From a virus (taxonomy: Duplodnaviria; Heunggongvirae; Uroviricota; Caudoviricetes), in IMG/VR virus record IMGVR_UViG_2908572912_000001, positions 1 through 34,457 of that record: a stretch of 34,457 nt of DNA. One strand, 5' to 3'. The translations under genes were made by a program, and so were the position numbers. Of this stretch, positions 2,608 to 21,074 are shown piece after piece (position 1 is the stretch's first letter; every line of letters begins with the position of its first letter). Below the pieces are notes generated by a model, which saw only the letters and a program-made list of their open reading frames with translations, did not search any database and was not told where the DNA came from.

Positions 2608-2809
2608 CTAAAGTTGGATACTTAAGAAATGCTTCATAATTCAGTAAGGCATTAGCATAATGGAAATAAAAGTGCAGAGACTATCTCTATGGATGATTAA
2701 TACTGTCTTTTTATTGTCACCCATAAATAATCACCAGACTAATACTATCAACTTGATATTTGAAATGTGATCACTTGACTTTTGATACGTTATTTTATAA
2801 CGGTTAACA

Positions 2810-2846
2810 TATTTATAAAAACAACGGCCGTGCCACACGTCCGTTT
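2810..2846. terminator. Diverged copy of the icd 3'-flank hairpin/terminator (aaaacaacggccgtgccacacgtccgtttcaatacttaac)
   Basis: About 45 bp alignable with 3681-3725, with compensatory changes in the hairpin stem. Confidence 0.4.
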
Positions 2847-3630: not shown

Positions 3631-3671
3631 TGGGCTTCATATAAATATGCTCGATATGCTATTAATAATAT

Positions 3672-3710
3672 CCACATAAATAAAACAACGGGCGTGTTAT
3701 ACGCCCGTTT
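3672..3710 (-). terminator. icd rho-independent terminator (hairpin aacgggcgtataacacgcccgtt followed by a T-run on the minus strand); also placed to stop iraM
   Basis: GC hairpin plus T-run immediately after the icd stop codon. Confidence 0.6.
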
Positions 3711-3732
3711 CAATATTTAACACATGGAGAGA

Positions 3733-3900
3733 TTACATGTTTTCGATGATCGCTTCACCAAACTCTGAACATTTCAGCAGCTTAGCGCCTTCCATCAGAC
3801 GTTCGAAGTCATAAGTTACGGTCTTGGCATTGATTGCGCCTTCCATACCTTTAACAATCAGGTCAGCCGCTTCAGTCCAACCCATATGGCGCAGCAGTAT
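3733..3900 (-). pseudogene. icdC: Displaced 3' end of icd (isocitrate dehydrogenase), last 55 codons only = icdC-type prophage junction
   Basis: Translation [55 protein letters not shown] equals the Icd C-terminus; similarity stops abruptly at 3900. Confidence 0.9.
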
Positions 3901-4596
3901 ATAAAAACATTAAGTTCAAGTCATTGATATTTAATGATAAAAAATATTTTATTGTTTTTTTATTAGCCAAAATCAACTTTATTCAACCGTTTGATTTCAT
4001 TGACGTTCGTTTTTATTTTGGGGAAAGGTTTTCTCTACCATTTATATCCAAATTACAAGTCTACATTTTATTAACACCTCAATACATGTGAGGCCTTGCA
4101 GACCTTTGTGAGACCTTATGTGTCTCTGTTTTGTCCCAACTTATGTTAAGAGGCACATAATTAAAAATAAGATAACGATGCCGCCAATCAGTGCAAAACC
4201 TTGTTTACTCCACGACTGTCTGCCCCATTATCTGCATACATAATTATCTTCCATAACTGAGATAAATGTCGGTTATGAGCGAACAACAGACGTTTAGTTT
4301 ATGATGACTGTATCTATACATTAAACATAACATCCATTACCGGCACCGCTTATTAATTGCTATCTGATATTGTCACTAAAAAATAGGCATTCCCCGATAT
4401 AATAATTACAAAGAAGCTTTTGGTGCTGGCAATCGGTATACCTAATAGTGGACTGCGACTTTCCGGGCTCGACAAGGATATATCAATGTATGAGCAGGAA
4501 AATTAGACCGTGGTGCGTCATATGATGACTAAGCACGGATAACAGCTACTTAATTGAAACTATTGATTATATTACAGCCAGTGCCTTATAGGATGG

Positions 4597-5718
4597 TTAG
4601 TCATCAACCGCGACTCCTGCACAATCATGGGCTATTGCCAGCAATTGTTTTTTAATTGCTTTAGCATCTACCGTCATATCTACTGTAGCAAAATGGATCT
4701 TATGTCCCTGAGTGACAACATACTCATTAAGCATATAGCCAACAGCTGGATGAAGTAGAAGACCAGCGGCATTGAGCGAAAGCGGATCCGTCTTGTTCTC
4801 CTGTGTTCTAAGGTAGGTATATAGCTGATAAATATAGCCATTACGTAGTGATTGCTCCCGATGCCAACCCTTTGTCAGAATCGAATTAAATTTGGTATCG
4901 ATAATAATACGCCGCTGGGCAGTCTTGTGTTCCAGAATAATGTCTGACTTCATTGTCGGGAAAATCTCTGCACTACCTGCACTTTGATCGCTCAACGCCC
5001 ATTTCAGCTCTTTCCCTGCAGAGACCTGCCAAGTTGTTTTGGCAAGGTGTACACGATATAAGCCAGCGATACCTTTTTCAAATAGTCTTCTCATCCAGTA
5101 AAGGTTATTTGAGGGCGCAGGTAAAAGATATTGGCCTTGATCTTCGGTCGGCATCAGCAGTTCAAAAGCTAATCGTGCGGCATCGACCATCGGTTTATCT
5201 GCGGCATCATGGCGTCCAAAACGCCACACTGAGGGTAATTCGTGGGGGGCAGGATATCCTCCATTTATCCCCTCACGGCGAAGTGATATTGCCATAAAAT
5301 GGCAATCTGCCGCCAAAGACGGTTTCACTATGATTGAGGCCAGACGTTCTAACGCACAGCGAACATAGCGATTTCGGGGGGTGTTGAGGGTTATGTCTTG
5401 AAAATGGCAGGCAACCTGTCCCCGTTCCAGTAGTTGATGACTGGCAGTATACAGTATGTCAATGCGCCCTCTCACCCGGTTCAGGGCCGCATGACAAGTT
5501 TGGTATCCCATATTTAAATTGCGACGTCGGCGCAGCGTAATCTCATGAAGGAGGATTGTCGCCACCAGGTCGGGGATTTCTGCTGGGTTATCTTCTACTG
5601 CGATCTGATTGCGCCCTAACTGACGAAACAGATCTGAAGCGTACAGCATCAGCATCCAGATATTTCGCATGGGAATACGTGATGCTGTATGTTGCTCACT
5701 CCCGGTTATTGTCGTCAT
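4597..5718 (-). CDS. mcrC: McrC-like endonuclease subunit (PD-(D/E)xK) of a McrBC-type modification-dependent restriction system
   Basis: N-terminal IPMRNIWMLMLYA resembles McrC IPVRNIYYMLTYAW; C-terminal IIIDTKF...NGYIYQLYTYL matches the McrC nuclease motif (VDAKY...NLYQLMNYL). 4-bp overlap with upstream mcrB-like gene. Confidence 0.8.
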   Translation of the reverse strand: MTTITGSEQHTASRIPMRNIWMLMLYASDLFRQLGRNQIAVEDNPAEIPDLVATILLHEITLRRRRNLNMGYQTCHAALNRVRGRIDILYTASHQLLERGQVACHFQDITLNTPRNRYVRCALERLASIIVKPSLAADCHFMAISLRREGINGGYPAPHELPSVWRFGRHDAADKPMVDAARLAFELLMPTEDQGQYLLPAPSNNLYWMRRLFEKGIAGLYRVHLAKTTWQVSAGKELKWALSDQSAGSAEIFPTMKSDIILEHKTAQRRIIIDTKFNSILTKGWHREQSLRNGYIYQLYTYLRTQENKTDPLSLNAAGLLLHPAVGYMLNEYVVTQGHKIHFATVDMTVDAKAIKKQLLAIAHDCAGVAVDD

Positions 5719-7697
5719 TTTGCTAATAACACTTTTCTGGCTTCATCGACTTTATTTGGAGCATCGAACCAATATTCGGCGAGCAAAGGGCAGATCTCTG
5801 TATCAACGACTTGTTCATACCAAGCCTGGGCATCGTTGATTTTTTGGCCGATAGCTGGGGTGACATAGCTGTGACCGATACAAAACTGTGGTCCTAAGGT
5901 AACATCTTTTGCCAGCATATCGTTAAGTACCGTCAGTCGAGATTTGATGAATGCTAACATGTCAAAATCAATTGCGTAATTATAATTTACCCAGTTTCTC
6001 CACGCGTCATTAAAAGCTGGCTTTAGATCGATAAACGCGAAACGACGGCGCAGCGCTAGGTCAAGTAGTGCGAGTGAGCGGTCTGCAATATTCATCGTAC
6101 CGATGATATATAGATTCTCAGGAATGTATATTTTTTCATCATCATTTTTAGGATAGGAAAGAGATAATGCCTCAGTCGGCGTGCGTTTATCTGCTTCCAT
6201 CAACGTGAGTGTTTCACCGAAGATTTGCGCCGGATTGCCACGATTAATCTCTTCAATTATCACCACATATTTCGAGGTAGGATTATTGACTGCAGTTTTG
6301 ATTGCATTTACAAAAGGTCCATCAATTAGCGTCAATTGCCCTTCTTTACCTGGACGCCAGCCGCGAATAAAGTCTTCGTAAGAGAGGTTCGGGTGAAATT
6401 GCACCGCGCTAATACGCTCAGGTGCTTTTTCTCCCATCAAGCAGTACGCCAGACGTCGCGCTAACCAGGTTTTTCCAGTTCCGGGTGGTCCTTGTAATAT
6501 CAGGTTTTTCTTGTCGATCAGGCGCTGAAGTGTGAGTTGGATCTTAGCCTCTTCCAAGAAACAGCCATCCTGCACCAGATGACTGATGTCATAAGGAACG
6601 TGAGTGAGTTTTGGCAACGGCGCACTCTCTTCGACAGTTTCCTCAGTTATCGTCTGGGATTCGTTTTTCTCAAAATTCAGGTATTCATAATTTCCGGACT
6701 CAAGGGACTTTAACTCATCATCATTGCATAGTTTCTGTAGATAAAAGTAGATTGAGCTTGTAACTGTTTTGCTCTCAGGATGCTCTACCTTGAATACGTC
6801 CAAGTAGTTTTCTTCCAACTCCGAAGCAGTGAAATAAGGGCCATTTTTTTTCAGGCATAACGCCTTAATTTTATTCAGTAAAGAGGCTTTCCACGTTCTA
6901 TTTGCCACCTCATCTTTAGACTGGCTAAGATCTGTATTCCACGCTGATAAAGAAAGTTCTGGGAAAGAATGAACCGGATAGTTTGGTTGGGTAAAGACCT
7001 CGTTCAGCGCCCGCATAAGACTCAGGTAACTTTGTCCACTACAGCGACCTTTTGCCCCGTTTTTAATGATCTTAATGTTTAACACTGTCTGAATGTAATA
7101 CTGCGACTGGCTATCTAAAGTAGGGTAGAACCAAGGACGGGTCCAGTACAACCCCATGGTGAGATTCCAACCGACATTCATTACTGTAGAAGCGATGTCA
7201 TATGCGGCAGTGAAGTCTGCAGAGTTAGTATTCTGGTTATCCGCAAAGGTCATTGCCTGCGAGAACATTTCCCACAAGCATTCAATGTCATTAGGGTCGC
7301 GTGACTTTTCATAACCAAAGAACCAAGATTTTTGGTTATTCAACAGCGGGATTCCGGCAAAGGAGTCAGGAATCGGTTCGTTCACGCCCAACAAATTCGC
7401 TAGCTTGGCAGCAATAATTTTGCGATTGCTGTCGGTCAAGTTACGATTGAACAAGCCCATAGTAGTAAACGGACAAATGTCTTTTAAGGGAAAGATCTCT
7501 CCCATAATAGATTTGTCCTGCAGATGGGACATTCCTTCCACACCTGAGGCAATTAGATGAATACCTTTGACTAATTCATCTCTACGATTTCGCCAAGTCA
7601 GTAACGCGTTGGCAAAAGCCTCATAAAAACTAGCCCAAGCAAATTTGCCATCATGTTCTGCTGTATCCACGGGAACTCCATTATACTTGTTGAGCAA
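5715..7697 (-). CDS. mcrB: McrB-like AAA+ GTPase (C-terminal 270 aa) with a long, unrecognised N-terminal domain of about 390 aa
   Basis: C-terminal LILQGPPGTGKTWLARRLAYCL, VVIIEEINRGN, YIIGTMNIADRSLALLDLALRRRF align with EcoK McrB GTPase motifs; N-terminal region has no similarity I recognise. Confidence 0.8.
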   Translation of the reverse strand: MLNKYNGVPVDTAEHDGKFAWASFYEAFANALLTWRNRRDELVKGIHLIASGVEGMSHLQDKSIMGEIFPLKDICPFTTMGLFNRNLTDSNRKIIAAKLANLLGVNEPIPDSFAGIPLLNNQKSWFFGYEKSRDPNDIECLWEMFSQAMTFADNQNTNSADFTAAYDIASTVMNVGWNLTMGLYWTRPWFYPTLDSQSQYYIQTVLNIKIIKNGAKGRCSGQSYLSLMRALNEVFTQPNYPVHSFPELSLSAWNTDLSQSKDEVANRTWKASLLNKIKALCLKKNGPYFTASELEENYLDVFKVEHPESKTVTSSIYFYLQKLCNDDELKSLESGNYEYLNFEKNESQTITEETVEESAPLPKLTHVPYDISHLVQDGCFLEEAKIQLTLQRLIDKKNLILQGPPGTGKTWLARRLAYCLMGEKAPERISAVQFHPNLSYEDFIRGWRPGKEGQLTLIDGPFVNAIKTAVNNPTSKYVVIIEEINRGNPAQIFGETLTLMEADKRTPTEALSLSYPKNDDEKIYIPENLYIIGTMNIADRSLALLDLALRRRFAFIDLKPAFNDAWRNWVNYNYAIDFDMLAFIKSRLTVLNDMLAKDVTLGPQFCIGHSYVTPAIGQKINDAQAWYEQVVDTEICPLLAEYWFDAPNKVDEARKVLLAK

Positions 7698-8039
7698 TGA
7701 TAATTTATCTGTGTGAGTTTTAACATATTACTATCAGTTATAGAAAAATTTAACTACCCGATACAGAGAGCGGCATGCTGAATTTGACCTGACTTGCTTC
7801 CAACCAATTAAAATCAACTTATTTATCAATTGGTTATTTTGGCGCATAGCGGTCATCAAGGGAATATCGCGTTGTCATAAGGTGTCGAGGCTCGGAGGTT
7901 CAAATCCTCTCATGCAAAAAATAAATAAAATTAATGACGGTTGGAAATTATTCAATACATACACTCTCGAAAGTGCATCAACCAACCGCAGCACGTCTTG
8001 CATACGGCGTGTCTGCAGTTTTATATAATCCTGGCTGGA

Positions 8040-8262
8040 AACCTCTTATACAAAGTCGATACACCAATATCATAGATGATCGCCACCTTCTGACGCGGGA
8101 CTTTTGATGCAATTAATCGCCCGGCCTGCGCCCATTGTTCTGATGTAAGTTTAGGACGACGTCCACCAATTCCTCCCTGTGCGCGAGCATCTTCCAGTCC
8201 AACTTTTGTTCAGTCATCAATCAGTTCACGCTTCATTTCAACCAGGGCTCCATCACATGGAA
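8040..8262 (-). pseudogene. pin: pin-type DNA invertase (serine recombinase) 3' fragment with internal stop
   Basis: Minus-strand translation ...GALVEMKRELIDD* then ...GLEDARAQGGIGGRRPKLTSEQWAQAGRLIA..PRQKVAIIYDIGVSTLYKRFPA matches the Hin/Gin/Pin C-terminal HTH region; N-terminal catalytic domain absent. Confidence 0.6.
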
Positions 8263-8737
8263 AAATAAAAAAAAACCATCGATGTTGACGTGTCAATGTT
8301 ACCTGTCAGGCTACGGAAATCCCCCCCCTTACCCGCAGCTACTCGGTAAGTATAATAAGATGTTTCCTGCTCCTTCCTAACCTGTCCAGTTTCCAGACAA
8401 TTAAAGTATCACCTTATATAAGAGACTGCAGAGCGCACTTTAACCTAGGTCGTTCTGAAATAGTTGCAGATTCGATTAATCAACGATTATACTCCCCGGC
8501 ACTCCAGAGGATCTGGTAAACATAAAGTCAGAGCTTGGGTATACTGGCACACAAATGGCAGATCTTGCAGGTGCAGCCAGTCATAGCCAGTGGCGAAAAT
8601 ACACGAGTGGTTCTGAGCCCCGCGCCATGTCATCACATATCTTGTTTTTTTATTGCTACCAATCTGACTTTGAGTACTAATGAGCTAGATAGAATTGTTT
8701 GTAAAATAAAAAAAATTGGAACAGTGATTATATAAAA

Positions 8738-9826
8738 ATGAAGAAGGTAAAATCAATTCACTATTTGCGAGGTGTAGCAGCATTACTCGTTGTTGCATAT
8801 CACAATAAACAATACCTAAATGAAGTTTACGCACAAAAAGATCTAGGTGATTTATTGTTTATTAGTGGTGGTTTTGGGGTTGATCTGTTTTTTATTATAA
8901 GTGGATTTATAATAATGTTATCGAGTCAAAAAAAAGAAACAAATTCCCCTATTAACTTTATGACCAGGCGTTTTTTCAGGATTTACCCTGTATTTTTCAT
9001 TTGCACAATCTTATTCTTTTTATTGAACCCAGTCTTCACCGAAAGTGAATTATTGCGTTCATTGTTTCTGCTTCACCTGGACTATTATTCAGAAGCGCCA
9101 TTCTTCGGATACAACGTGCTTTATCCAGCATGGACATTAACCTTTGAAGTCTATTTTTATTTCATTTTTATGCTTGCAATATCGCTGAGTCATAAAAACA
9201 GATTATTAATATCAGTTATTGCATTGATAGTCCCGCTACTTCTCATACAGTTGAAATTTTCCAACAGCCTTTCTCTATCAAGTAAGTTTACGATTGGTGA
9301 TACAGGTCATTGGCATATTGGCTTTCTAAACTTAATGTCATCACCCATGCTGTTAGAATTCGTTTATGGGATGTTTCTGTATATAATACACAGAAAATTT
9401 AAATATATAAAAAACGCAAAGGCGATATCATTCCTTTTGGTTTCATTTGGTGTTTGCTCATATTTTTATCAATTCAGATTTGGTCATGGCCCTTTAAACT
9501 TCGGATTGTGGGCAGCCTCCATAATTACGGGAGTTTTACTTTATGAAGTTAACTTCGGATTAAGGGAAAATAAAATACTCAGTAAGCTAGGTGATATCTC
9601 TTACTCTCTGTATTTATCCCATGCGATAGTAATGCTATTTTTAATTAATTTTAAGGATTTCATTCCGCTTTATGAAAAACCTGGGTTCTCTAAGTTTTCA
9701 TTCATTATTGCTCTTAGCTTGTTCTTATCATTCTTTATTTATAAATATATTGAAACTCCATTCATTAATATCGGAAAAACAATATCCAAAAGACTTTCAA
9801 AACCAACATTAACTTATAGCGAATAG
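8738..9826 (+). CDS. Acyltransferase family 3 integral membrane protein (OafA/Oac-like O-acyltransferase), AT-rich cargo gene
   Basis: 362 aa, about 10 hydrophobic segments, N-terminal YLRGVAALLVVAYH and FFIISGF motifs typical of acyltransferase-3; very low GC relative to neighbours. Confidence 0.75.
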   Translation: MKKVKSIHYLRGVAALLVVAYHNKQYLNEVYAQKDLGDLLFISGGFGVDLFFIISGFIIMLSSQKKETNSPINFMTRRFFRIYPVFFICTILFFLLNPVFTESELLRSLFLLHLDYYSEAPFFGYNVLYPAWTLTFEVYFYFIFMLAISLSHKNRLLISVIALIVPLLLIQLKFSNSLSLSSKFTIGDTGHWHIGFLNLMSSPMLLEFVYGMFLYIIHRKFKYIKNAKAISFLLVSFGVCSYFYQFRFGHGPLNFGLWAASIITGVLLYEVNFGLRENKILSKLGDISYSLYLSHAIVMLFLINFKDFIPLYEKPGFSKFSFIIALSLFLSFFIYKYIETPFINIGKTISKRLSKPTLTYSE

Positions 9827-10130
9827 TACTCACAAGAGCAAGTGGCGCAATAGTAAAAATCTGTTGCGCCCACATTATAAATCGCTCTCCAATAGCAAAG
9901 TATCTTAGTGACTAAGCATTACCTAAGTTATCACTATAAACACAAAATACTACGCGGAGCGGAATAGTGCTCTCCTTTTGACCAGCTATTGCATGGTAAA
10001 TAGTGGGGCTGTTTTTCTATTTGACCGAGCTGTATCTGCCCCTCGATATGTTGCCCTCACGCAATATTCCAAATGTCAGTAAAACGGCAGGTGTAGCGGT
10101 ATTATGCGCAGCTATTTAGGAGTTGCTGGG

Positions 10131-10463
10131 CTATCGCTTCGAAGGTGGAGGCCAGACGGGGTTTACTGTATCAACACGGTTCAGCAATACCCGATATGTT
10201 TTCCATGCGGCCAGAAACGCTTTCTCTTCCTCCGTTGCGATCTCCAGCTCAGCAACAGTCTGAACGTACCAGGAACAGCCTCCTTCAGGGCTTGAAGGAT
10301 ATTTCACGTTAATCCCGTTAAGATCATCGCTGCCGGGAACGTTCGTCGAGGCATGAAGATACCCCGCGCTCAGCGTGGACTGATGTTCAGACGCCCATGC
10401 AGGCGCACCGGATACGACCAGACAGATGGCTGCGGACAAAATGGCTGCACAAACTTTACGCAT
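10131..10463 (-). pseudogene. lom: lom outer-membrane protein gene, frameshifted after about 55 codons
   Basis: [55 protein letters not shown] matches lambda Lom N-terminus, then diverges into an unrelated frame. Confidence 0.7.
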
Positions 10464-10486
10464 AATTACCTCTCGCTTTTCTGCAA

Positions 10487-10518
10487 TAAAAAAGGCGTCA
10501 TTCCTGACGCCCTTTATT
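10487..10518. terminator. Bidirectional hairpin terminator between J and lom (ggcgtca ttcc tgacgcc flanked by A-run and T-run)
   Basis: Perfect 7-bp stem with A/T runs on both sides. Confidence 0.5.
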
Positions 10519-10533
10519 GGGGTTATAACAATT

Positions 10534-13310
10534 TCAACGAATACTGATGCCGGAAGCAGCCTTTTTGGTCACAATCACCGTACAGTCGGTGATATTGCCT
10601 GCCCCCTGATTGCCTTTCTGGAAAATCTTAAACTCCAGAGTGACGCTTCCCCTGCCACTCGGCATATCAATAACCGCACTGTAACTACCGGGAATGGCCC
10701 CTTTAGTTTCTCTGGATGCGATTAATACGCCGTTTTTGCGAACTTCAAAACCATACCCCGTGTACCTTGTACCTCCCGGGTTATCACCACTTCCCGGATC
10801 GTCATACGCTATACCGTTAAAGATAATGGGCGGAATAATGATTTGACGGTCAAAGTTATGATCATCGCTGATGGTGACTGTAACCGTCCCGTCTGGTGTT
10901 TCCGTGTTACCCCACGTACCAGCCTTTTTCGGGAATGATTTGGATACTGTTTTAACAAAATCACCTCTGACCTGATTCGCCTCCAGCATACCCTTAATCG
11001 TACAGTTTTCATTTATCGTGACGTTGTTGAGCGTCCCGGCGTTCGCATTCACACTGCCACTGATATCCGCATTTTTAGCGGTCAGCTTTCCGTCCGGTGT
11101 CAGGGAAAATACCGGTGGATTTCCACCACTGGTAATGGTGGGGGCCGTCAGGCGTTTGAGGAACACGTCGTTCATGAATATCTGGTTGCCCTGCGCCACA
11201 AACATCGGCGTTTCATTCCCGTTTGCCGGGTCAATAAACGCGATACGATTGGCGGCAACCAGAAACTGGCTCAGTTTGCCTTCCTCTGTATCCTCCATGC
11301 TGAGGCCAAGCCCCGCGACATAATGCTTACCGTCTTCGGTCTGCTCAATTTTGACGCCCCACATGGCATTCCATTTATCGTTGGCGTCCTTCCACTCTTT
11401 CGAAAACTCCTCCAGTCTGCTGGCGTTATCCTCCGTCAGCTCGACTTTTTCCAGCAGCTCCTTGCCGAGATGGGATTCGGTTATCTTGCCTTTGAAAAAA
11501 TCCAGGTAACCTTCCGCATCATCGCTCGCCCGACCAACGGCTTCCACGAATGCCGATTTGCCAACGGTGTTCACACTGCGGATATAAAAGTAATAATCAT
11601 GGCCCGGTTTGATATTGATACTGGCGGCTATCCAGTACAGCGCCGTACCAAGATAGCGGGCTGTGGTTTCAACCTGCCTGATATCGGTAATCCGCTTTTC
11701 CGAGAACCAGAACTCAAACTGTACCGTCGGGTCATAAACGGCAAGATGCGGCGTGGCGGTTATCTGAAAATAGCCCGGCGTCAGCTCAATCCTCGACGGT
11801 GTTGCCGGTGCGGCAATCCGGAACGATACCGACGCCGGATCGCCCTGCTGTCCCCACGCATTTACCGCCCGGACTGTCAGCGTGTACCGCCCCAGCGCCA
11901 GTTGCGTGAAGCGGTATGTGGTTTCCGTCGTCCGGGCCGTGCTGACCAGCCGCTCACTGCCGTCATCCGCTGCCACGGTCAGGCGAAGCATAAAGCTCAC
12001 CCCCTTCACCACCTTCGGCGTGTCCCAGCGCGCCAGCACCTGATATTCCCCGCTGTCTGCGGTGACTTCGGCAGTCAGGTGCTGCACCGCTGGCGGCGTG
12101 ACACCATTCACCGTGCCGCTCTGGTCGCCGTCAAAGTGCGCCCCGTTATCCACGATGGCCTCTTTTTCCGGTACATGCTGCACGGCGGTGATGGCATACG
12201 TGCCGTCATCGTTCTCACGGATACTCACGCAGCGGAACAGACGCTGGCGCAGCGTCGGCAGCTTCAGCCCCCATACGCTGTATCCGGCAACGCCGTCAGG
12301 AACACGGCTCACTTTTACCTTCACGCCGTCGGTGACGGACTGGACCTCCACGCTGACCGGATTGCCACTTCCGTCAACCAGGCTTATCAGCGTGGTACCG
12401 GAGGATGGCAGCGTGATTTCACGGTCAAGCGTCAGCGTCCGGGTCTGGCTGTTCACCGCCAGCACGCGCCCGCCGATGCTGATCCCCGCATAGTCATCAT
12501 CGCAGATTTCAATAACATCACCCGGCACATGGCGAAGCCCTTCGGCACCCACGCTGAAATCCACGGTCTGCGTCTCCAGCAGCTCCGTTTTAATCAGCCA
12601 CAGCCCGGCGCGGTGTGCCTGCCCCCGGCTGGTACAGCCAAAGGCATCCATCTTCGTGACGTTACGACCGTAACGGGCAATGGCCTGCGTGTCCTCCACA
12701 AGCTCTGTCGCCGTCTCCCAGCCGTTATCCGGGTCAATCCAGTTCACCTCAACGGCATTATGGCGGTCCTTCAGGGCGCTGAAGCTGTAGCGGAACGGCG
12801 CGCCATCATCCGGCATCACCACATTACTGCGGTTATAGGTCCACACCTTATCTGATGGTCGGTCCTGCACGAACGTCAGCGTCTGCCCGTTCCATACCGG
12901 CATACAGCGCATCGCCGAGCAGAAATCACTGAGCACATCCCACGCCTTGCGCTGTGTGGTCAGGTACGCATTACAGGTGATGCGCGGCTCCGTGCCGCCA
13001 AAGCCGTCCGGCACTGACTGGTCGCAGTACTGGCCGATGACATACAGCGCCCATTTATCCACATCCGCCGCACCAAGACGTTTCCCCATGCCGTAGCGCG
13101 GATGGGTCAGCATATCCCACAGACACCAGGCCATGTTGTTGCTGTACGCTGGCCTGAACGTTCCGTCCCAGATACCGCTGTATTGCCGCGTCTGCGGGTT
13201 ATAATTCGACGGCACCTGCAGAATACGCCCGCGCAGATGATAATTACGGCTCACCTGCTGGCTGCCGAACTGCTCCGAGTCCACCTGCACGCCGACCAGT
13301 GCCGTGTTCG
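10534..13310 (-). pseudogene. J: Tail tip/host-specificity protein J, C-terminal ~918 codons only (N-terminal ~200 codons deleted)
   Basis: Translation matches lambda J from ...[19 protein letters not shown] to the C-terminal receptor-binding region; no ATG start, upstream sequence is nu1 in another frame. Confidence 0.9.
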
Positions 13311-13819
13311 GGTATCAGTTCATCCAGCGCGGCTGCTTTGTTCATGGCTTTGATGATATCCCGTTTCAGGAAATCAACATGTCGGTTTTCCAGTTCCGGA
13401 AAACGCCGCTGCACCGACAGGGGGATCCCGTCGAGAATACTGGCAATTTCACCTGCGATCCGCGACAGCACGAAAGTACAGAATGCGGTTTCCACCACTT
13501 CAGCTGAGTCTCTGGCATTCTTCAGTTCCTGTGCGTCGGCCTGCGCACGCGTAAGTCGATGGCGTTCGTACTCAATAGTCCCTGGCTGGAGATCTGCCTC
13601 GCTGGCCTGGCGCAGTTCTTCAACCTCCCGGCGCAGCTTTTCGTTCTCAATTTCAGCATCCCTTTCGGCATACCATTTTATAACGGCGGCAGAGTCATAA
13701 AGCACCTCATTACCCTTGCCACCGCCTCGCAGAACGGGCATTCCCTGTTCCTGCCAGTTCTGAATGGTACGGATACTCGCACCGAAAATGTCAGCCAGCT
13801 GCTTTTTGTTGACTTCCAT
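13311..13819 (-). pseudogene. nu1: Terminase small subunit Nu1, 3'-truncated (about 169 of 181 codons), fused out of frame to J
   Basis: MEVNKKQLADIFGASIRTIQNWQEQGMPVLRGGG... matches lambda Nu1 to ...ALDELIP, then reads into J-derived sequence and stops at 13244. Confidence 0.9.
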
Positions 13820-13839
13820 TGTTCATTCCACGGCCAAAA

Positions 13840-14060
13840 ACAGAGAAAGGAAACGACAAAGGCCCAAAAGTTCGTTTTCAGCACCTGTCGTTTCCTTTCT
13901 TTTCAGGGGGTATTTTAAATAAAAACATTAAGTTACGACGAAGAAGAACGGAAACGCCTTAAACCGGAAAATTTTCATAAATAGCGAAAACCCGCGAGGT
14001 CGCCGCCCCGTAACCTGTCGGATCGCCGGAAAGGACCCGCAAAATGATAATAATTATCAT
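13840..14060. other. cos: Lambda-type cos region: cosN 12-nt cohesive end (AGGTCGCCGCCC at 13997-14008), cosB on the nu1 side, cosQ-like GATAATAATTATCAT on the other
   Basis: Reverse complement reproduces the lambda left-end sequence (GGGCGGCGACCTCGCGGGTTTTCGCTATTTATGAAAATTTTCCGG...) as remembered. Confidence 0.8.
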
Positions 14061-14207
14061 CTGCATGTCACAACGTGCATCTACGCCATCAAACCACGTC
14101 AAATAATCAATTATGACGCAGGTATCGTATTAATTGATCTGCATCAACTTAACGTAAAAACAACTTCAGACAATACAAATCAGCGACACTGAATACGGGG
14201 CAACCTC

Positions 14208-14402
14208 ATGTCAACGAAGAACAGAACCCGCAGAACAACAACCCGCAACATCCGCTTTCCTAACCAAATGATTGAACAAATTAACATCGCTCTTGAGCAA
14301 AAAGGGTCTGGGAATTTCTCAGCCTGGGTCATTGAAGCCTGCCGTCGGAGACTAACGTCAGAAAAGAGAGCATATACATCAATCCAAAGTGATGATGGAT
14401 GA
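14208..14402 (+). CDS. ylcI: YlcI-like small protein (64 aa), possible ribbon-helix-helix fold
   Basis: 64-aa ORF between cos and bor, same place and size as DLP12 ylcI; name assignment from memory. Confidence 0.55.
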   Translation: MSTKNRTRRTTTRNIRFPNQMIEQINIALEQKGSGNFSAWVIEACRRRLTSEKRAYTSIQSDDG

Positions 14403-14764
14403 ACATCCCGGTTTCTTCCACCATCGCACCGGAAAAGCGACTATGAGGGTAACCCTGCGTCTGTCAGCACAGTAAAACCCGGTGTGCATCGTTTTTGATT
14501 ATTCCCGCACACTCACGCAGAAGGAATTCCCCGTCGGGCTACGGTCATGGTTAATGCGGGAATACGGCGACGATACAGCGCAGCTAAAAGGGTAATAGAC
14601 GGATAGACCGGTTTATTTCATTCCACAGGATTCTGAGTGTCCCCAACTTCCTCCAATAGTCTGAGCGTACACCTATATAGTTTTAATTTTCATCAATCCA
14701 TTTAACTATCGTTTAATTGTTGTCACATAGGATTCTGCCGTTTTTAACAATGCAGGATAATAAG

Positions 14765-15058
14765 ATGAAAAAAATGTTGTTTTCTGCCGCTCTGGCAATG
14801 CTTATTACAGGATGTGCTCAACAGACGTTTACTGTTGGAAACAAACCGACAGCAGTAACACCAAAGGAAACCATCACCCATCACTTCTTCGTTTCGGGAA
14901 TTGGACAGGAGAAAACTGTTGATGCAGCCAAAATTTGTGGCGGCGCAGAAAATGTTGTTAAAACAGAAACCCAGCAAACATTCGTAAATGGATTGCTCGG
15001 TTTTATTACTTTAGGCATTTATACTCCGCTGGAAGCGCGTGTGTATTGCTCACAATAA
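14765..15058 (+). CDS. bor: Bor lipoprotein (serum-resistance moron), 97 aa
   Basis: MKKMLFSAALAMLITGCAQQTFTV... lipobox LITGC, near-identical to lambda Bor/DLP12 BorD; track ORF starts at an upstream alternative codon. Confidence 0.9.
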   Translation: MKKMLFSAALAMLITGCAQQTFTVGNKPTAVTPKETITHHFFVSGIGQEKTVDAAKICGGAENVVKTETQQTFVNGLLGFITLGIYTPLEARVYCSQ

Positions 15059-15089
15059 TTGCATGAGTTGCCCATCGATATGGGCAGCT

Positions 15090-15551
15090 CTATCTGCACT
15101 GCTCATTAATATACTTCTGGGTTCCTTCCAGTTGTTTTTGCATAGTGATCAGCCTCTCTCTGAGGGTGAAATAATCCTGTTCAGCGGTGTCTGCCAGTCG
15201 GGGGGAGGCTGCATTATCCACGCCGGAGGCGGTGGTGGCTTCACGCACTGACTGACAGACTGCTTTGATGTGCAACCGACGACGACCAGCGGCAACATCA
15301 TCACGCAGAGCATCATTTTCAGCTTTCGCATTAGCTAACTCCTTCGTGTATTTTTCATCCAGTGCAGCAACATCACGCTGGCGCATCTGCATGTCAGTAA
15401 TTGCCGCGTTCGCCAGCTTCAGTTCTCTGGCATTTTTGTCGCGCTGGGCTTTGTAGGTAATGGCGTTATCACGGTAATGATTAACAGCCCATGACAGGCA
15501 GACGATGATGCAGATAACCAGAGCGGAGATAATCGCGGTTACTCTGTTCAT
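15090..15551 (-). CDS. Rz: Rz spanin (inner-membrane subunit)
   Basis: [49 protein letters not shown]... matches lambda Rz/RzpD. Confidence 0.9.
15149..15331 (-). CDS. Rz1: Rz1 spanin (outer-membrane lipoprotein), embedded in Rz in another frame
   Basis: [51 protein letters not shown]; lipobox VVGC and proline-rich region. Confidence 0.85.
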
Positions 15552-16045
15552 TGCTGACCCCACAAACAGATTTCACGCTCAATCTCACGACGAGTCATGA
15601 GACCTTTCCATTGCTTACCGCCAGCATATGTCCAGCGACGTAACTGATCACATGCGCCTTTGATATCGCCCTGGTTTATTTTGCGAAGAAGCGTCGATGT
15701 TCTGAAATTGCCAGCACCCACGTTGTAAACGAATGAGTAAAGAGCGCCGCGCGTTGTTTCCGGTATATCGACTTCGATGTACGGGTTAATTTGTCTGGCG
15801 ACAGTGGCAAGGTCTTTATTCAAGAGTGCTTTGCATTCTGCTTTGGTATACGTTTTACCGAGCATGATGTCTTTTCCTGTATGCCCGTGACATACAGTCC
15901 ATACACCAACAATATCTTTGTATGGTATGTAGCTGACACCTTCCAGACCATCGTTACCACTTGGGCCAGTGATTAACACTGATGCTATAGCAATTGCTCC
16001 GCCACCAATAGCAGCAGCAACGGCTTTTCGTAATGATGGAGGCAT
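15548..16045 (-). CDS. R: SAR endolysin (lysozyme R, phage 21 / DLP12 RrrD type)
   Basis: 165 aa with N-terminal signal-anchor-release segment [24 protein letters not shown] followed by a T4-lysozyme-like catalytic domain. Confidence 0.9.
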
Positions 16046-16260
16046 TATTCACCTCTCGCAGCCTTGCGCTTATCTTCTTTAATCTTGAAATAAAGGTTTG
16101 TCAGGTACGTCAGCAGGCCAAATACCAGGCTACCCAGCACACCTATTGCTGCCCACTGTGAGGGCGTGACTTTATCGAGCAGCTGTAAAAACCAGTAACC
16201 GGCACTACCTGCTGAGGTGCCATAGGCGACACCCGTTGTTAACTTATCCATGGATTTCAT
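16045..16260 (-). CDS. S: Class II pinholin (S21 / EssD type), 71 aa with dual start MKSM
   Basis: [71 protein letters not shown], two TM segments. Confidence 0.9.
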
Positions 16261-16361
16261 AACCCCACCTCGCAGACAAAGCGGGTGTAAATTGAGGGAA
16301 TACTACGAAACGTAACAGACTCGGAGTCAGTGAATAACTCAGGTATTGGGTTATCAGCTAA

Positions 16362-16405
16362 TATCGAGACTCAAAAAATGGAAAAACCCGCTCGACGGCG
16401 GGTTT
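16362..16405 (-). terminator. Strong rho-independent terminator about 100 nt upstream of S on the late strand (tR'-like)
   Basis: Minus-strand hairpin aaacccgccgtcgagcgggttt followed by tttttccatttttt. Confidence 0.5.
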
Positions 16406-16833
16406 AAGCTGTGTGACGAAGTAACCACTCTTAACAGCATAACCAATTTTTTACGTACGTAAACCACAAAATGATATTTGCGAGAATGCTACCGAGTATT
16501 GAAAACACCACTACAAATACATAAGCAAATCTCAACAAATAACCAGCAAATAATTTCCAGCGTTATTTTTAGCCGATTTAAATTGAACCTTCAAATTACA
16601 GAGCACTTATAAATAACAGCCGTTAATATAAATTGGCTAATAGATTTATTTTTATTCAGCCAAGAGCCATGAATAGGATTCGATAGAAAAAAGTTCAGAT
16701 AAAAATAGAGATCTACTTCACAAATCAAACGAGAAACCAAAACTTACATCTTGAAATAATCACATTGATTAGATGAATATTTATCGCGCAGTGACATCAT
16801 TTTTTAATAATAGTTCAAAAAAAAGGGCTCACG

Positions 16834-17916
16834 ATGAAAAAATTAACAGTGGCAATTTCTGCTGTAGCTGCATCAGTACTGATGGCGATGTCTGCTCAGG
16901 CAGCTGAAATTTATAATAAAGACAGTAACAAGCTGGATCTATATGGGAAAGTTAATGCCAAGCACTACTTCTCCTCTAATGATGCAGATGATGGTGATAC
17001 TACTTATGCCCGTCTTGGCTTCAAAGGTGAAACCCAAATCAACGATCAACTGACTGGTTTCGGTCAGTGGGAATATGAATTCAAAGGCAACCGCGCTGAA
17101 TCTCAAGGCTCCTCCAAAGACAAAACCCGTCTTGCATTTGCAGGCCTGAAATTCGGGGACTACGGCTCAATCGATTACGGCCGTAACTACGGTGTAGCAT
17201 ATGACATCGGTGCGTGGACTGACGTTCTGCCAGAATTCGGTGGCGATACCTGGACCCAAACAGATGTGTTCATGACTGGTCGCACCACTGGTGTTGCAAC
17301 TTATCGTAACAACGACTTCTTTGGTCTGGTTGATGGTCTGAACTTTGCTGCTCAGTATCAGGGTAAAAATGACCGCACTGACGTAACTGAAGCTAATGGT
17401 GATGGTTTCGGTTTCTCCACTACTTATGAGTATGAAGGATTCGGTGTAGGTGCAACCTATGCTAAATCTGACCGCACTAATAATCAGGTTATCTACGGTA
17501 ACAACAGCCTGAATGCATCTGGTCAAAATGCTGAAGTATGGGCAGCTGGTCTGAAATATGATGCGAACAACATCTATCTGGCCACCACCTATTCTGAAAC
17601 CCAGAACATGACTGTTTTTGGTAATAACCATATTGCCAACAAAGCACAAAACTTCGAAGCTGTTGCACAATATCAGTTCGACTTCGGCCTGCGTCCATCC
17701 GTTGCTTACCTGCATTCTAAAGGAAAAGACTTGGGTGTTTGGGGTGATCAGGACCTGGTTGAATATGTTGATGTAGGTGCAACCTATTACTTCAACAAAA
17801 ATATGTCCACTTTTGTTGACTACAAAATCAACCTGATTGATAAGAGCGATTTCACGAAAGCATCTGGCGTTGCTACCGATGATATCGTTGCTGTAGGTAT
17901 GGTTTACCAGTTCTAA
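16834..17916 (+). CDS. nmpC: OmpC/OmpD-family general porin NmpC, apparently intact (signal peptide, C-terminal ...VYQF)
   Basis: 360 aa, signal peptide [23 protein letters not shown], porin beta-barrel signature and terminal Phe; lies between Q and the lysis cassette on the opposite strand, as in DLP12. Confidence 0.9.
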
Positions 17917-18049
17917 TTTGATTACTAAAAGATATGTTGTGGGAGGCTTTGCCTCCCCAACATATAAGTGGCTCCCTCAAGCCACTTCCTTTAGAAGCAC
18001 AACCTTGCTTCTAACTATACAAACCTTCTGTTATATATTACCCTTTATT

Positions 18050-18085
18050 TTTGGGGGCGTTTCAACGCCCCATTTTTAATAACTT
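18050..18085 (+). terminator. Rho-independent terminator downstream of nmpC (ggggcgtttcaacgcccc + atttttaa); a second hairpin at 17938-17962
   Basis: GC stem followed by T-run on the plus strand. Confidence 0.5.
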
Positions 18086-18104
18086 TTAGTAAATAATTGG
18101 CGTA

Positions 18105-18488
18105 TTAATTAGAGTTATTAACAACGATATCCATCTCTAACCGGATATCTAATGCCATTAACATCCCTTCAATTATGCCCTCAGCCTTTTGTAACCTTTT
18201 CCCGATATAACCATCAGAGCAGCAATGCTTACCTGCCAGTGACATGAATGTCATACCGACTACATAATAATCTACTAATAAATCGTGCAAATCGCTGTTG
18301 TTCTTTTTCAGACGGGCCATGCACCCGCAAATGATCATCGCGTCATCGTCACAACATTGCGGGCGAGATTTTACTTTTGAAGGAATTAATCCCTTAAAAC
18401 CGGCGGCAATGGACGACCAGGTCACATCTTCATGATTATTAGCCGCCCACGCTCCCCAACGCTCAAGAACCATCTGAATATCACGCAT
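18105..18488 (-). CDS. Q: Late-gene antiterminator Q (phage 82 / DLP12 QuuD type), Cys-rich zinc-binding
   Basis: [26 protein letters not shown]...[16 protein letters not shown]... as remembered for QuuD; track ORF has a 5-codon upstream extension. Confidence 0.85.
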
Positions 18489-18563
18489 CAACTTACTCCA
18501 CAAAAATCAGACCAGAACGCCAATTACAAGCAAAAATCAATAAAACAGTATTAGTTGATTGTT

Positions 18564-18704
18564 ATCTCTGACTTCATACTCCTGCTCCTGTCAGGGTTTT
18601 GGCGTAATTCTTCAGTATTCGGTAATCGGTCAAAACAGAACCGGGGAAACGATATAAGCGCAGACGCCCCCAGCGGTGGCGAAGAAGTTCTGCCATATAA
18701 AACT
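18564..18704 (-). CDS. ylcG: YlcG-like small protein (46 aa), below the ORF-track size cut-off
   Basis: Hand translation [46 protein letters not shown] in the gap between rusA and Q, where ylcG lies in DLP12. Confidence 0.55.
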
Positions 18705-18710
18705 CAAACA

Positions 18711-19073
18711 TCATTCATTCCCCATTTCGGTGATGGTCAGTTCCAGCCTCCCACCTTTGGTAACAGGCATCTTCACAACGCGGTAATCAACGACCTGAGC
18801 ATCATCCAGCCAGAAACCTGCTTTGGTGAGTGCGTCAAAAGAGGCTTTTTGTAGATTATCCAGGTCACGGCGACGGCGATCCGGCATGTGGCACTCAATG
18901 CGGATTTTCACAGGCATAGCCAGACCGATATCCAGCATTGAGCCTTTAATGATTCGGGCGACGTTATCGCGGTATGCCTGCCCTTCTGCGCTGATGTGCG
19001 TGCGCCCTCGATTATGGCGGTAGTAGCGGTTATTGCTCGGCGGCCAGGGTAGTGTGATGTGGTAAGTATTCAC
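18711..19073 (-). CDS. rusA: RusA Holliday-junction resolvase
   Basis: 120 aa [26 protein letters not shown]...[26 protein letters not shown]; RusA catalytic Asp cluster. Confidence 0.9.
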
Positions 19074-19360
19074 GCCTTAATTACCCCCTCTTTCAGCCAG
19101 ATAACCTGCGTTCTCGCCATACCTTCCAGCGCGCATTCTTTTGCATATCCAGCGTCAACAAAATGCGTGCGGCGGTCGATTTCGTCGTGGCAGGCAGAAC
19201 ATGCAATGGTGGCAATCAGGTCTGGCGGTTTCGTACCGGTGCCGCACAATCCAGTCAGCCGGATATGTGCCAGTACAGACGTTTCAGGGTTGCCATTACA
19301 TACGCCAGGGATTCTTACCTGGCATTCCCGACCACGCGCTGCTTTTCTCAAATCAGCCAT
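19070..19360 (-). CDS. ybcO: YbcO-like (DUF1364) nin-region protein, Cys-rich
   Basis: [62 protein letters not shown]...; start refined to the internal ATG. Confidence 0.8.
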
Positions 19361-19523
19361 GATTCCTCCTTGCTGCCAGTCGCAACCATTTTTTATCAAC
19401 CAGGCTAGCGGTATATCCGAGCAGTGTTGGTATTTCGGATGGCTTCAGCTCAGGTTTACGCTTACGACGATTTGGTACTTTGTAGATGTGTCCGTTCATG
19501 ACACGAATAAGCGGTGTAGCCAT
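19353..19523 (-). CDS. ninE: NinE
   Basis: [56 protein letters not shown] (56 aa) = NinE family. Confidence 0.8.
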   Translation of the reverse strand: MATPLIRVMNGHIYKVPNRRKRKPELKPSEIPTLLGYTASLVDKKWLRLAARRNHG

Positions 19524-19978
19524 TACGCCTCCTGCTTGTCGCGCAGCAGCTGAAACTCGCAGCTCTGTGGAATAGTCAGGTGGCAACCAATATTCATCGC
19601 CCAGGCTTCAACCTTACACAGGAAGACATACATCTCTCCGGTATCAAGATCGGAGGTATGGCGTAACGACTGGATAGTGGTGATATCACCGGTTACGACA
19701 TCAACCAGGTCTTTGGTTTCATAACCGAGATATGTGTGTTTGAGAGCATCTTTTACCCAAGCTGGAGTGGCGAACGTTTTACCCTTGCTGATGAGGTATT
19801 CACTGATTTCGCTGTACCACATGTGGCTGAGTGCATTCTGGGAAAGACTGCGTCTCTCGCGCCACGGTTTAAGCACCATGCGAAAGCATTTGCCGTCCTC
19901 CAGATAAGGCTGGATCTGCCGACCAATAGCGGTGAAGTTACCGCGATGCAGTTTGATGCCATCTTGTGGGAAGTTCAC
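19523..19978 (-). CDS. ybcN: YbcN-like nin-region protein (NinB/Orf-family position)
   Basis: 151 aa, recognised as DLP12 YbcN from memory. Confidence 0.75.
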
Positions 19979-19984
19979 GCTTCA

Positions 19985-20150
19985 CCTCCGCAGAGATCAA
20001 ACGCTGGATGCAAAAAAACGCAGGTGCATTTCTGCATCTGTGGCAAGGCGAGGAGTTCAACTTGTGGTCGCATATAATTTCCCAATCATATGCGCAGAAG
20101 TCACCGCAGGGTGTTCAGGCCAACGGTGACGGTATTATTGCTTATTGATT
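19985..20150. repeat. Copy A of a ~150-bp imperfect direct repeat (blocks AGGTGCATTTCTGCATCTGTG ... GCGCAGAAGTCACCG..GTTCAGGC ... AT-rich)
   Basis: Hand alignment with 21470-21625: 21/21 identical first block, second block with hairpin whose loop contains GTTCAGG in both copies. Confidence 0.6.
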
Positions 20151-20459: not shown

Positions 20460-21074
20460 CTAACGTTGTTTAATAACATTCTGACGCAAATGTGGCAATA
20501 CTCGACTCCACTTATCATCCTGCCACGGCTGGAATTTTACATGTGCCGTTTCTCTGGCGAGGATTGCTCGCGCTCTGGTGAGTATCTGGGGATATTCTTG
20601 CTCGATGGAAGTGAAGCGACCAGCTTCACGATGCTCCGCAACCTGAAGAAGAGGAGTAACGTTCTGGCAGGCGGTTAACATCGCATCCCCAGCTCGCCAT
20701 AACCAAGCAAGTGTGCAAAGTTCGTTATCAGTGAATTGTTTTGTGATCGGGGATTGTTGAACTTCTCGATCGAGAATATCCAGAACCCAGCGGCGGAACT
20801 CTTTGGCTACAGGAGTTCGTGCAAACATGGCGATCAAATGGGCTCCGCGAAGGCTAAATACTCGAGACTCCTGCATTCCACGAGGGGTGGTCACTTTGAC
20901 CACCCTTGTCATCATATCTGTAAATTCATCTGAGTGACGGGAGTAAATGCGCTGAACTGCTTTATCGTCCGCATATTCCAGAGCTAAACCAACTTCAGTG
21001 GCAGTAAGCCAAATTCTGTTATTGTGGCAAATTGGGGTAAACGTCGTTTTGTGGAATGCTAATTGAGTAGTCAT
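20460..21074 (-). CDS. Bro-N domain DNA-binding protein (Roi/antirepressor-like)
   Basis: N-terminal ...ICHNNRIWLTATEVGLALEYADDKAVQRIYSRHSDEF... fits the Bro-N fold pattern; sits in the nin region like HK022 roi. Confidence 0.65.
   Translation of the reverse strand: MTTQLAFHKTTFTPICHNNRIWLTATEVGLALEYADDKAVQRIYSRHSDEFTDMMTRVVKVTTPRGMQESRVFSLRGAHLIAMFARTPVAKEFRRWVLDILDREVQQSPITKQFTDNELCTLAWLWRAGDAMLTACQNVTPLLQVAEHREAGRFTSIEQEYPQILTRARAILARETAHVKFQPWQDDKWSRVLPHLRQNVIKQR

Follow-up and report, generated by a model that had tools for sequence, protein, structure and literature searches.

The window, as we call the 34,457 nucleotides of IMG/VR virus record IMGVR_UViG_2908572912_000001 analysed here, carries a lambdoid prophage in which nu1 is joined directly to J and the head and tail genes between them are gone. 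This join is a real, ordinary decay scar of a defective lambdoid prophage, which cannot make virions. The scar itself is already known, as an identical scar is present and annotated in E. coli B, C and Crooks strains. The whole account, in which a single microhomology deletion, shared descent with the scar of DLP12 and homologous exchange into a prophage at icd led to what is now a passive relic, is very probably correct.

Alignments to lambda showed that residues 1-170 of lambda Nu1 (13311-13819) were fused straight to gpJ from codon 213 (13314 down to 10534), with all the genes concerned on the minus strand. The junction read GATGAACTGATACC followed directly by CGAACACGG. The parts of the fusion were located as follows.

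13311 to 13314, minus strand: deletion junction with the 4-bp microhomology TACC (alignments to lambda, REL606 and CV839-06)
13315 to 13317, minus strand: TGA in nu1 sequence, which closes the J frame directly upstream of the join (sequence)
13311 to 13819, minus strand: nu1-derived part of the fusion ORF, Nu1 residues 1-170 (tblastn, DNA alignment, PF07471)
13244 to 13819, minus strand: Nu1' ORF of 191 aa, made of Nu1 residues 1-170 and 21 out-of-frame residues from J DNA (stop at 13244-13246)
10534 to 13314, minus strand: J' relic, from gpJ codon 212/213 to the natural stop, with the N-terminal 212 residues absent (ORF list, alignment, Pfam)
13288 to 13290, minus strand: first possible start of J', a GTG equal to J codon 220, with the Shine-Dalgarno sequence absent

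In the alignments to lambda, the last base of nu1 homology was lambda 699 (second position of codon P170), and the J homology was unambiguous from lambda 16142, within codon P213. The original prediction had described a fusion of nu1 at about codon 169 to J at about codon 208 with a 2-bp microhomology (cc) at the join. The fusion itself stood, but the codons were corrected to 170 and 213 by the alignment to lambda, and the microhomology was actually the 4-bp TACC. The TACC was present in both parents, at 696-699 in nu1 and 16138-16141 in J (lambda numbering), and CV839-06, like lambda, had it in both genes; together with the preceding TG, nu1 and J matched at 6 of 7 bases. One TACC was kept at the join with no filler; of the short direct repeat found at each of the two parental breakpoints a single copy was thus retained, the mark of a microhomology-mediated illegitimate deletion. 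By our own calculation, about 1.5% of random joins would carry a microhomology of at least 4 bp by chance. The junction sequence showed no IS end, att-like site or long repeat at the join. The nu1 and J segments were contiguous homologues of lambda genes, as had been supposed, and both flanks of the join aligned to contiguous nu1 and J sequence in intact relatives. One RecA-independent, microhomology-mediated illegitimate deletion between the two TACC copies would have brought codon 170 of nu1 next to codon 213 of J.

The deleted block was equivalent to lambda 700-16141 (15,442 bp), or to 15,457 bp when compared with the closer relative CV839-06. It ran from the 3' end of nu1 through the genes A, W, B, C, Nu3, D, E, FI, FII, Z, U, V, G, T, H, M, L, K and I to codon 212 of J. 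The predicted loss of roughly 15 kb of head and tail genes was thus confirmed: about 15.4 kb was absent, from A to I and including the 5' end of J, and the missing genes did not lie elsewhere in the window, where tblastn found no match to the other lambda head or tail proteins. The prophage retains cos, the lysis cassette, bor/iss, an intact NmpC-type porin and Q.

A second scar was found in the same late operon.

10131 to 10463, minus strand: Lom residues 1-55 fused to a C-terminal remnant of Tfa, with the join at 10300-10302

This scar removed the 3' part of lom and all of stf, 3,775 bp relative to CV839-06. The Lom'-Tfa' chimera contained PF06316 (Ail_Lom) at positions 1-55 and PF02413 (Caudo_TAP) at positions 87-127, and an exact-match look-up of it gave no match.

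The same nu1-J junction was present in 63 of 5,426 complete E. coli genomes (B/REL606/BL21, C and ATCC 8739, which is Crooks). All of the three copies checked (REL606, GF4, F1022) were in DLP12, adjoining appY/ompT, and in these the scar was annotated as a 191-aa terminase small subunit beside a J pseudogene. All other database copies found were REL606-type DLP12, among them the two IMG/VR contigs and the one metagenome contig with the scar. The scar had no match outside E. coli in one genome per GTDB species, no phage record spanned the join, and the 1.2 kb surrounding the join were at most 98.0% identical to any complete E. coli genome. The literature search on DLP12 in B strains returned a report on ECB_00512 and no open-access description of the nu1-J join.

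Comparison with DLP12 (qsr') of E. coli B (REL606/BL21), C and ATCC 8739 showed the same join, the same 21-residue out-of-frame tail, and a 191-aa Nu1' (WP_000453609.1) beside the J relic ECB_00512. The late-gene set of quuD, NmpC-type porin, essD, rrrD, rzpD, bor/iss, ylcI and cos was also shared, the gene names of the late region being carried over from annotated relatives. Over 11450-20130, the window was collinear with the DLP12-type late region of REL606 (quuD, porin, essD, rrrD, rzpD, bor, ylcI, cos, nohD) at 93-96.5% identity. However, the DLP12 copies with this scar are located at argU by appY/ompT, and their DNA was 96.5% identical over 11450-17412. The window lacked the DLP12-type integration at argU, which is bounded by intD on one side and by appY/ompT on the opposite side. 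DLP12 of REL606 also differs in the C-terminal receptor-binding region of J, which is of a different type, in stf, which it keeps and which is deleted here, and in the porin, which is split by IS1 there and intact here.

Unlike the argU-located DLP12, the prophage in the window is integrated at icd. Its left flank carries ariR...iraM, an icd fragment and a McrBC-like gene pair, as in E94, and its integrase (33315-34457) was 100% identical to the integrase of CV839-06, which adjoins icd. The original prediction could not have seen that the scar is common to DLP12 of E. coli B, C and Crooks, or that the prophage here is at another attachment site. The near-intact lambdoid prophage of CV839-06 (NZ_CP025753, 4,012,122-4,057,315), located at the same site, best represents the parent as it was before the deletion. 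The early region was 99.9-100% identical between the two, the attR-side cargo 100% and the segment from cos to the porin nearly 100%. The CV839-06 prophage has the whole nohD-A...I-J-lom-stf block, with internal stops in H and J and an IS3-family insertion in rrrD. It differs from the window in the nin region, and also by about 3% in the tract that carries the scar.

11050 to 14063, unstranded: divergent tract of about 3 kb carrying the scar, with 99 mismatches to CV839-06

The backbone around this tract was nearly identical to CV839-06, with 100% identity over 5336-10302, 1 mismatch in 10300-11049 and 3 mismatches in 14050-17549. The right boundary of the tract lay between 13936 and 14216, a segment spanning cosN. 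The alleles at 13682, 13834, 13865, 13907 and 13936 were seen only in scar-bearing copies and were absent from lambda, CV839-06, E94 and K-12; some scarred metagenomic copies were without several of the five. Since the sequence immediately beside the join (13318-13504) was invariant in all copies, scarred or intact, shared descent rests on the identity of the join and on the five linked alleles 370-620 bp away. No donor of the 3-kb tract was found, REL606-type DLP12 being only about 96.5% identical over 11450-17412. The location of the join in a divergent tract on a CV839-06-like backbone indicates that the scar was exchanged by homologous recombination. The deletion would have occurred once, and the identical join would have been inherited by DLP12 of E. 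coli B, C and Crooks-type strains. Scarred and intact alleles would then have been swapped through one crossover in J and one beside cos. As to direction, a scar-bearing relative may have converted an intact icd prophage, or a scarred icd prophage may have undergone repair in the lineage of CV839-06.

An independent origin of the same nu1-170::J-213 deletion within the icd prophage itself, as at a recurrent hotspot, is quite improbable. The 4-bp microhomology, with its 6 of 7 matching bases when the flanking TG is included, could favour repeated slippage, and the attachment site here is unlike that of every other copy examined. However, repeats of 4 bp are much too frequent in 15 kb for one pair of sites to be targeted again and again, and relatives lost the same block via other joins. 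DLP12 of K-12 MG1655 (nohD, aaaD, tfaD) has the same late region and an intact cos, and its head and tail block is likewise deleted, but its full-length nohD (546 bp) is followed by the A' pseudogene aaaD and then by tfaD, with no J left; the different scar points to an independent deletion. The defective icd prophage of E94 (NZ_CP119740), with the same chromosomal site, flanking cargo and late region, has a third, independent scar, in which nohD is full length, a 264-bp A' is fused to an N-terminally truncated lom, and stf is kept. Moreover, a deletion in place would leave flanks identical to CV839-06, whereas the join lies in a 3%-divergent tract with alleles seen only in scarred copies. These differences argue for a deletion that occurred once and was then exchanged by homologous recombination.

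The J' frame was open for 925 codons from P213, 918 of them from the GTG, in agreement with the prediction of a C-terminal J fragment that has no ATG and is open for 918 codons. The ORF at 10534-13290 (918 aa, GTG start) matched lambda J residues 212-1131 with 86% identity over 931 aa, and at the DNA level the identity was about 95% up to about 10980. The last approximately 150 residues of J' were of a type unlike the lambda end, and it is the end of lambda J that binds LamB. The Pfam domains in J' were Phage-tail_3, Ig_J, Ig_J_second, Phage_Tail_Tip and Ig_GpJ_C. The domain series of gpJ, which runs from the N-terminal hub-forming part to the receptor-binding domain, was incomplete with the first 212 residues deleted.

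J' is very unlikely to be a working gene that produces, by initiation at GTG 13290 or further downstream, a tail-less receptor-binding protein, for example one masking the receptor after lysis. Its 918-925 open codons, its full set of C-terminal gpJ domains including the receptor-binding domain, its low dN/dS and a frame that is also open in REL606, F1022 and L020 would suit such a gene. However, expression from GTG 13290, which had been raised with the original prediction, was unsupported. J' has no ATG, no Shine-Dalgarno sequence was seen upstream of the GTG (sequence ...CACTGGTCGGCGTG), the TGA at 13315-13317 closes the frame at the join, and gene I is absent. The promoter search within nu1', upstream of J', gave no promoter-like site and matches at chance level only; with the Shine-Dalgarno sequence lacking as well, independent expression of J' was rejected. 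A programmed frameshift from nu1' into J, which is in the -1 frame, was also rejected, as no X XXY YYZ slippery heptamer was seen in the 21-codon overlap of nu1' and J. No signal peptide for export was seen when the sequence was judged by eye. Among the other copies with the same scar, the J' frame was broken 58 codons past the join in the BL21-type copies and truncated in GF4, a loss which indicates that there is no selection to keep J' open.

The substitution pattern was no sign of function either. Between J' here and J' of REL606, dS was 0.15 and dN/dS was 0.11, in the same range as between functional J genes. The closest J sequences (98.6%) were full-length gpJ genes of other prophages and not other scarred copies. 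Because dS was 0.15 and the pattern was mosaic, the low dN/dS reflects import from functional J genes rather than selection in place, and purifying selection on J' was rejected as evidence of function, the signal being inherited from those genes. We read the mosaic pattern, the dS and the 98.6% match to full-length gpJ as traces of ongoing recombination with functional phages. Since it lacks a usable start, and there is no tail into which its product could be built, J' appears from its sequence to be an untranslated relic. It is likely a passive one, whose sole probable role is that of a homologous reservoir with which infecting lambdoid phages may recombine; the mosaic pattern, the dS of 0.15 and the dN/dS of 0.11 would be the footprints of such a reservoir in this copy.

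The nu1 side of the fusion was highly conserved. Residues 1-170 were 99.4% identical to lambda Nu1 (tblastn, E = 2e-113), the DNA was 98.1% identical to lambda 1-699, and PF07471 (Phage_Nu1) was recorded for the identical protein. The REL606 homologue, the terminase small subunit WP_000453609.1, had two residue differences, K48R and A75T, and the length of the Nu1' ORF was unchanged in 15 of the 15 other scar-bearing copies examined. The N-terminal part of Nu1 holds the winged-helix DNA-binding and self-assembly regions, while its C-terminus is the region that binds gpA and is needed in lambda terminase. In Nu1', the last 11 residues (171-181) were swapped for 21 unrelated residues, the large-subunit gene that should be adjacent was missing, and tblastn found no gpA homologue in the window. 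Nu1' keeps the N-terminal 170 residues but lacks the 11 terminal residues of the gpA-binding region and, in this prophage, a gpA partner.

The cos region beside the scar was intact, as predicted, and of the same type as that of lambda.

13997 to 14008, minus strand: the 12-nt cohesive-end sequence of cosN, GGGCGGCGACCT, with lambda right-end homology abutting at 14009
13830 to 14040, minus strand: the complete cos region (cosQ, cosN, cosB), which is collinear with the ends of lambda when joined and has only scattered substitutions

The cosQ heptamer GGGTCCT and the 12-nt cosN were identical to lambda, as were the sequences of the R3, R2 and R1 sites at the positions that we take them to occupy. 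Nu1' and the intact cos could be imagined as a domesticated anti-phage decoy that binds cosB but not gpA and hinders packaging by superinfecting phages with a lambda-type cos, given the 191-aa ORF that was intact, and differed at only 2 amino acids, among all 16 scarred copies examined, the N-terminal 170 residues kept and the unchanged cos. We consider such a decoy highly improbable. The ORF is short, so its intactness weighs little, and its late-operon position, deduced from the lambda gene order, would require Q-dependent transcription. Furthermore, REL606, which has the same Nu1', is a routine host for growing and evolving lambda, and this argues against any strong exclusion of lambda; no experimental report of such an activity was found.

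Lambdoid repeats often break or mis-join assemblies, but an assembly or chimera artefact can practically be dismissed, as the identical join was present in the 63 complete genomes and contig 427 of Logan SRR6799402, an independent read-set assembly, was 100% identical to the window over 10273-13640, across both scars.

For the biology of lambdoid prophages the scar brings little that is new: it documents how one of them lost virion formation, through a scar that is also found in the widely used E. coli strains B, C and Crooks. Recombination between lambda and DLP12 in the cos-nu1 region of K-12 occurred at high frequency, and 10 of the 19 crossovers sequenced on that side were directly beside cos (PMC3945230). 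The segregation of scarred and intact forms as a cos-bounded patch of about 3 kb on one backbone would be the trace left in nature by the cos-stimulated recombination that laboratory work has measured. We suggest only tentatively that the scar allele moves among lambdoid prophages at different sites by cos-stimulated homologous recombination, so that a defective DLP12-type prophage at argU might disarm an intact co-resident prophage at icd by gene conversion. If true, the inactivation of prophages would spread by gene conversion, without a fresh deletion each time. When lambda J recombined with the J relic ECB_00512 of REL606, phage fitness doubled (bioRxiv 10.1101/2020.11.02.365361). The C-terminal portion of J in this prophage, which includes the receptor-binding domain, is the type of relic that infecting lambdoid phages may copy, with altered or better host recognition as the outcome, and it is of relevance to phage-training work.

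The lambda nu1 gene was joined to the interior of J in the window, and the features on either side of this join are listed below.

13244-13819, minus strand: nu1', a truncated nu1 ORF of 191 aa (Nu1 residues 1-170 plus 21 residues)
10534-13290, minus strand: J', an N-terminally truncated J ORF of 918 aa with a GTG start
13315-13317, minus strand: TGA shutting the J frame, right at the join
13997-14008, minus strand: cosN, 12 nt, identical to lambda

Residues 1-170 of Nu1' shared 99.4% identity with lambda Nu1 (tblastn, E = 2e-113), and the final 21 residues were an out-of-frame reading of J DNA. The J' ORF corresponded to gpJ residues 212-1131 (tblastn, 86% identity) and carried the Pfam domains Phage-tail_3, Ig_J, Ig_J_second, Phage_Tail_Tip and Ig_GpJ_C, the last being the C-terminal receptor-binding domain. 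Alignments with lambda, with the same-scar DLP12 prophage of the E. coli B strain REL606 and with the near-intact icd prophage of E. coli CV839-06 bore out the nu1-into-J deletion join of the original prediction, both as observed and as interpreted, and the join reads GATGAACTGATACC/CGAACACGG. The last nu1-homologous base was lambda 699 (codon P170), and the first unambiguous J-homologous base was lambda 16142 (codon P213), so that the breakpoints move from the predicted codons ~169 and ~208 to 170 and 213, and the microhomology is TACC in place of CC. Since TACC is common to both parental sites (nu1 696-699 and J 16138-16141), the crossover is placed inside 13311-13314; with the TG two bases upstream included, 6 of 7 bases match. 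The deletion removed lambda 700-16141, or 15,442 bp, in agreement with the ~15 kb expected, and 15,457 bp when measured against CV839-06. At least 4 bp of microhomology would occur at a random join with a chance of ~1.5% by our own calculation, and the join fits a short-homology illegitimate deletion. The arrangement is real, since contig 427 of SRR6799402, an independent assembly, was 100% identical to 10273-13640.

As predicted, cos was intact beside the join: 13311-14008 aligned to lambda 699-1 (98.1%) and 14009-14419 to lambda 48502-48092 (95.9%), and the cosQ heptamer, cosN, R3, R2 and R1 were unchanged, at what we take to be their positions in cos. A tblastn comparison of the window with the full set of lambda proteins from Nu1 through Tfa gave matches only to Nu1 1-170, J 212-1131 and a Tfa remnant of 33 residues, and none of the other head and tail genes was present elsewhere in the window in an alternative arrangement.

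The same scar was already present in other genomes. When 200 bp with the join at their midpoint were used as the query, 63 of the 5,426 complete E. coli genomes covered them, namely derivatives of B (REL606, BL21 and relatives), strain C, ATCC 8739 and a small number of natural isolates. The scar lay inside DLP12 in REL606, GF4 and F1022, with the lysis and cos genes on one side and appY/ompT on the other; RefSeq annotates there a 191-aa terminase small subunit adjoining a J pseudogene "missing N-terminus", and the end of the REL606 pseudogene coincided exactly with TACC. The join 30-mer had no match in a one-genome-per-GTDB-species set and was found in three contigs, two from IMG/VR and one from a metagenome, each of REL606-type DLP12.

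The window prophage was not at argU. Its left flank contained ariR, ymgA, an IS, ycgX, iraM, an icd fragment and an McrBC-like gene pair, as in the defective icd prophage of E94, and its right-end integrase was 100% identical to the CV839-06 integrase adjoining icd. CV839-06 carries a near-intact version of this prophage, with nohD, A to I, J, lom and stf all kept. Internal stops in its tape-measure gene and J (31631-34210 and 36612-40025 in coordinates of the CV839-06 sequence) and an IS3-family insertion in rrrD were also observed, and it is probably defective too despite the full gene set. Identity with CV839-06 was 100% at 5336-10302 and 99.9-100% at 24748-34457, with 3 mismatches across 14050-17549, while the scar-holding tract at ~11050-14063 had 99 mismatches. 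A deletion in place in a CV839-type prophage would leave identical flanks and is unlikely given these mismatches. Informative sites placed the right edge of the divergent tract between 13936 and 14216, an interval that includes cosN, and the alleles at 13682, 13834, 13865, 13907 and 13936 were confined to scarred copies, being absent in lambda, CV839-06, E94 and K-12. This pattern indicates that scarred and intact forms were exchanged as a homologous patch, with crossovers in J and beside cos. In that exchange, either an intact prophage would have acquired the deletion or a scarred prophage would have been repaired. A patch with a crossover beside cos agrees with the laboratory result for lambda and DLP12, in which recombination across cos-nu1 was frequent and 10 of the 19 crossovers sequenced on the cos-nu1 side were directly beside cos (De Paepe et al., PMC3945230).

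An identical nu1-170::J-213 join could also reflect a deletion hotspot, which is argued against by the different joins used in separate losses. In the DLP12 of K-12, the A' pseudogene aaaD stands between a full-length nohD and tfaD, and in E94 a full-length nohD is retained and a truncated lom is joined to a 264-bp A' fragment. This family of prophages has thus lost its head and tail block on three or more separate occasions. The three deletions start within ~320 bp of the nu1/A boundary (~lambda 699-1020), and each destroys A but leaves cos in place together with nu1, whole or for the greater part.

13311-13314: the deletion in the window
5355-5663, in coordinates of the K-12 sequence: the deletion in K-12 DLP12
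19858-20121, in coordinates of the E94 sequence: the deletion in E94

This clustering could mean that an active terminase next to a cos in the chromosome is selected against, or it could simply stem from how the examples were found.

Over the first 1,749 nt of J', the window and REL606 gave dS = 0.15 and dN/dS = 0.11, similar to the comparison values for J (0.10 for lambda and REL606, 0.08 for lambda and CV839-06). Acquisition of sequence from functional J genes, and not selection on the relic, accounts for this low ratio: the differences were patchy along the alignment and the nearest sequences to the window J' were full-length gpJ genes of other prophages (98.6%). The J' frame was open to the natural stop in REL606, F1022, L020 (another scarred copy) and the window, broken 58 codons past the join in BL21-type copies and truncated in GF4. 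The BL21-type copies had an extra internal J' deletion of ~0.87 kb, equivalent to ~12279-13156 of the window, and Nu1' in eight metagenome contigs of this form was that of the window, not of REL606. Nu1' was 191 aa in 16 of 16 scarred copies, with 2 substitutions between the window and REL606, and this uniform intactness weighs little because the ORF is too short.

The GTG at 13290 was preceded by ...CACTGGTCGGC, with no Shine-Dalgarno sequence upstream. Promoter-like and terminator-like matches were at chance level across 12900-14300, and none fell inside nu1'. The J frame is -1 relative to nu1', and no slippery heptamer was seen in their 21-codon overlap.

Further features of the window were as follows.

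10131-10463 (join at 10300-10302): second deletion scar in the same late operon, a 110-aa chimeric ORF
724-1980: IS3-family element of ~1,257 bp, ORFs of 102 and 288 aa
~31676-32978: second IS3-family element between the excisionase and DUF4222 genes, ORFs of 108 and 296 aa
16834-17916: intact NmpC-type porin gene, 360 aa
4597-7697, 20460-21074 and 21686-23638: defence-like cargo

At the second scar, Lom residues 1-55 were joined in frame to the Tfa C-terminal remnant via 49 nt of former intergenic DNA, with loss of the 3' part of lom and the whole of stf (3,775 bp against CV839-06). The first IS3-family element stands in place of part of ycgZ and of bluF and bluR (~2.6 kb against E94), so the blue-light regulator genes are absent in the strain; the second has the size of IS629/IS1203. 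The porin gene is intact here, whereas its DLP12 counterpart is split by IS1 in REL606 and annotated as a two-piece pseudogene in K-12. The cargo comprised an AAA ATPase of McrBC type together with McrC at the attR end, a NACHT-domain protein of 650 aa, and a Bro-N/P22 antirepressor-type protein between P and nin.

The scar is an ordinary feature of prophage decay, and strains in wide use already carry it in annotated form. The role of the J relic as a recombination donor is likewise already published: Borin et al. (bioRxiv 10.1101/2020.11.02.365361) reported that lambda J acquired ~1.3 kb of ECB_00512, a J homologue of REL606 termed "a genetic relict", by recombination, and that this doubled the fitness of the phage; ECB_00512 is the counterpart of the window's J'. 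What is new is modest, namely the same scar at a second attachment site, within a recombination patch bounded by cos.
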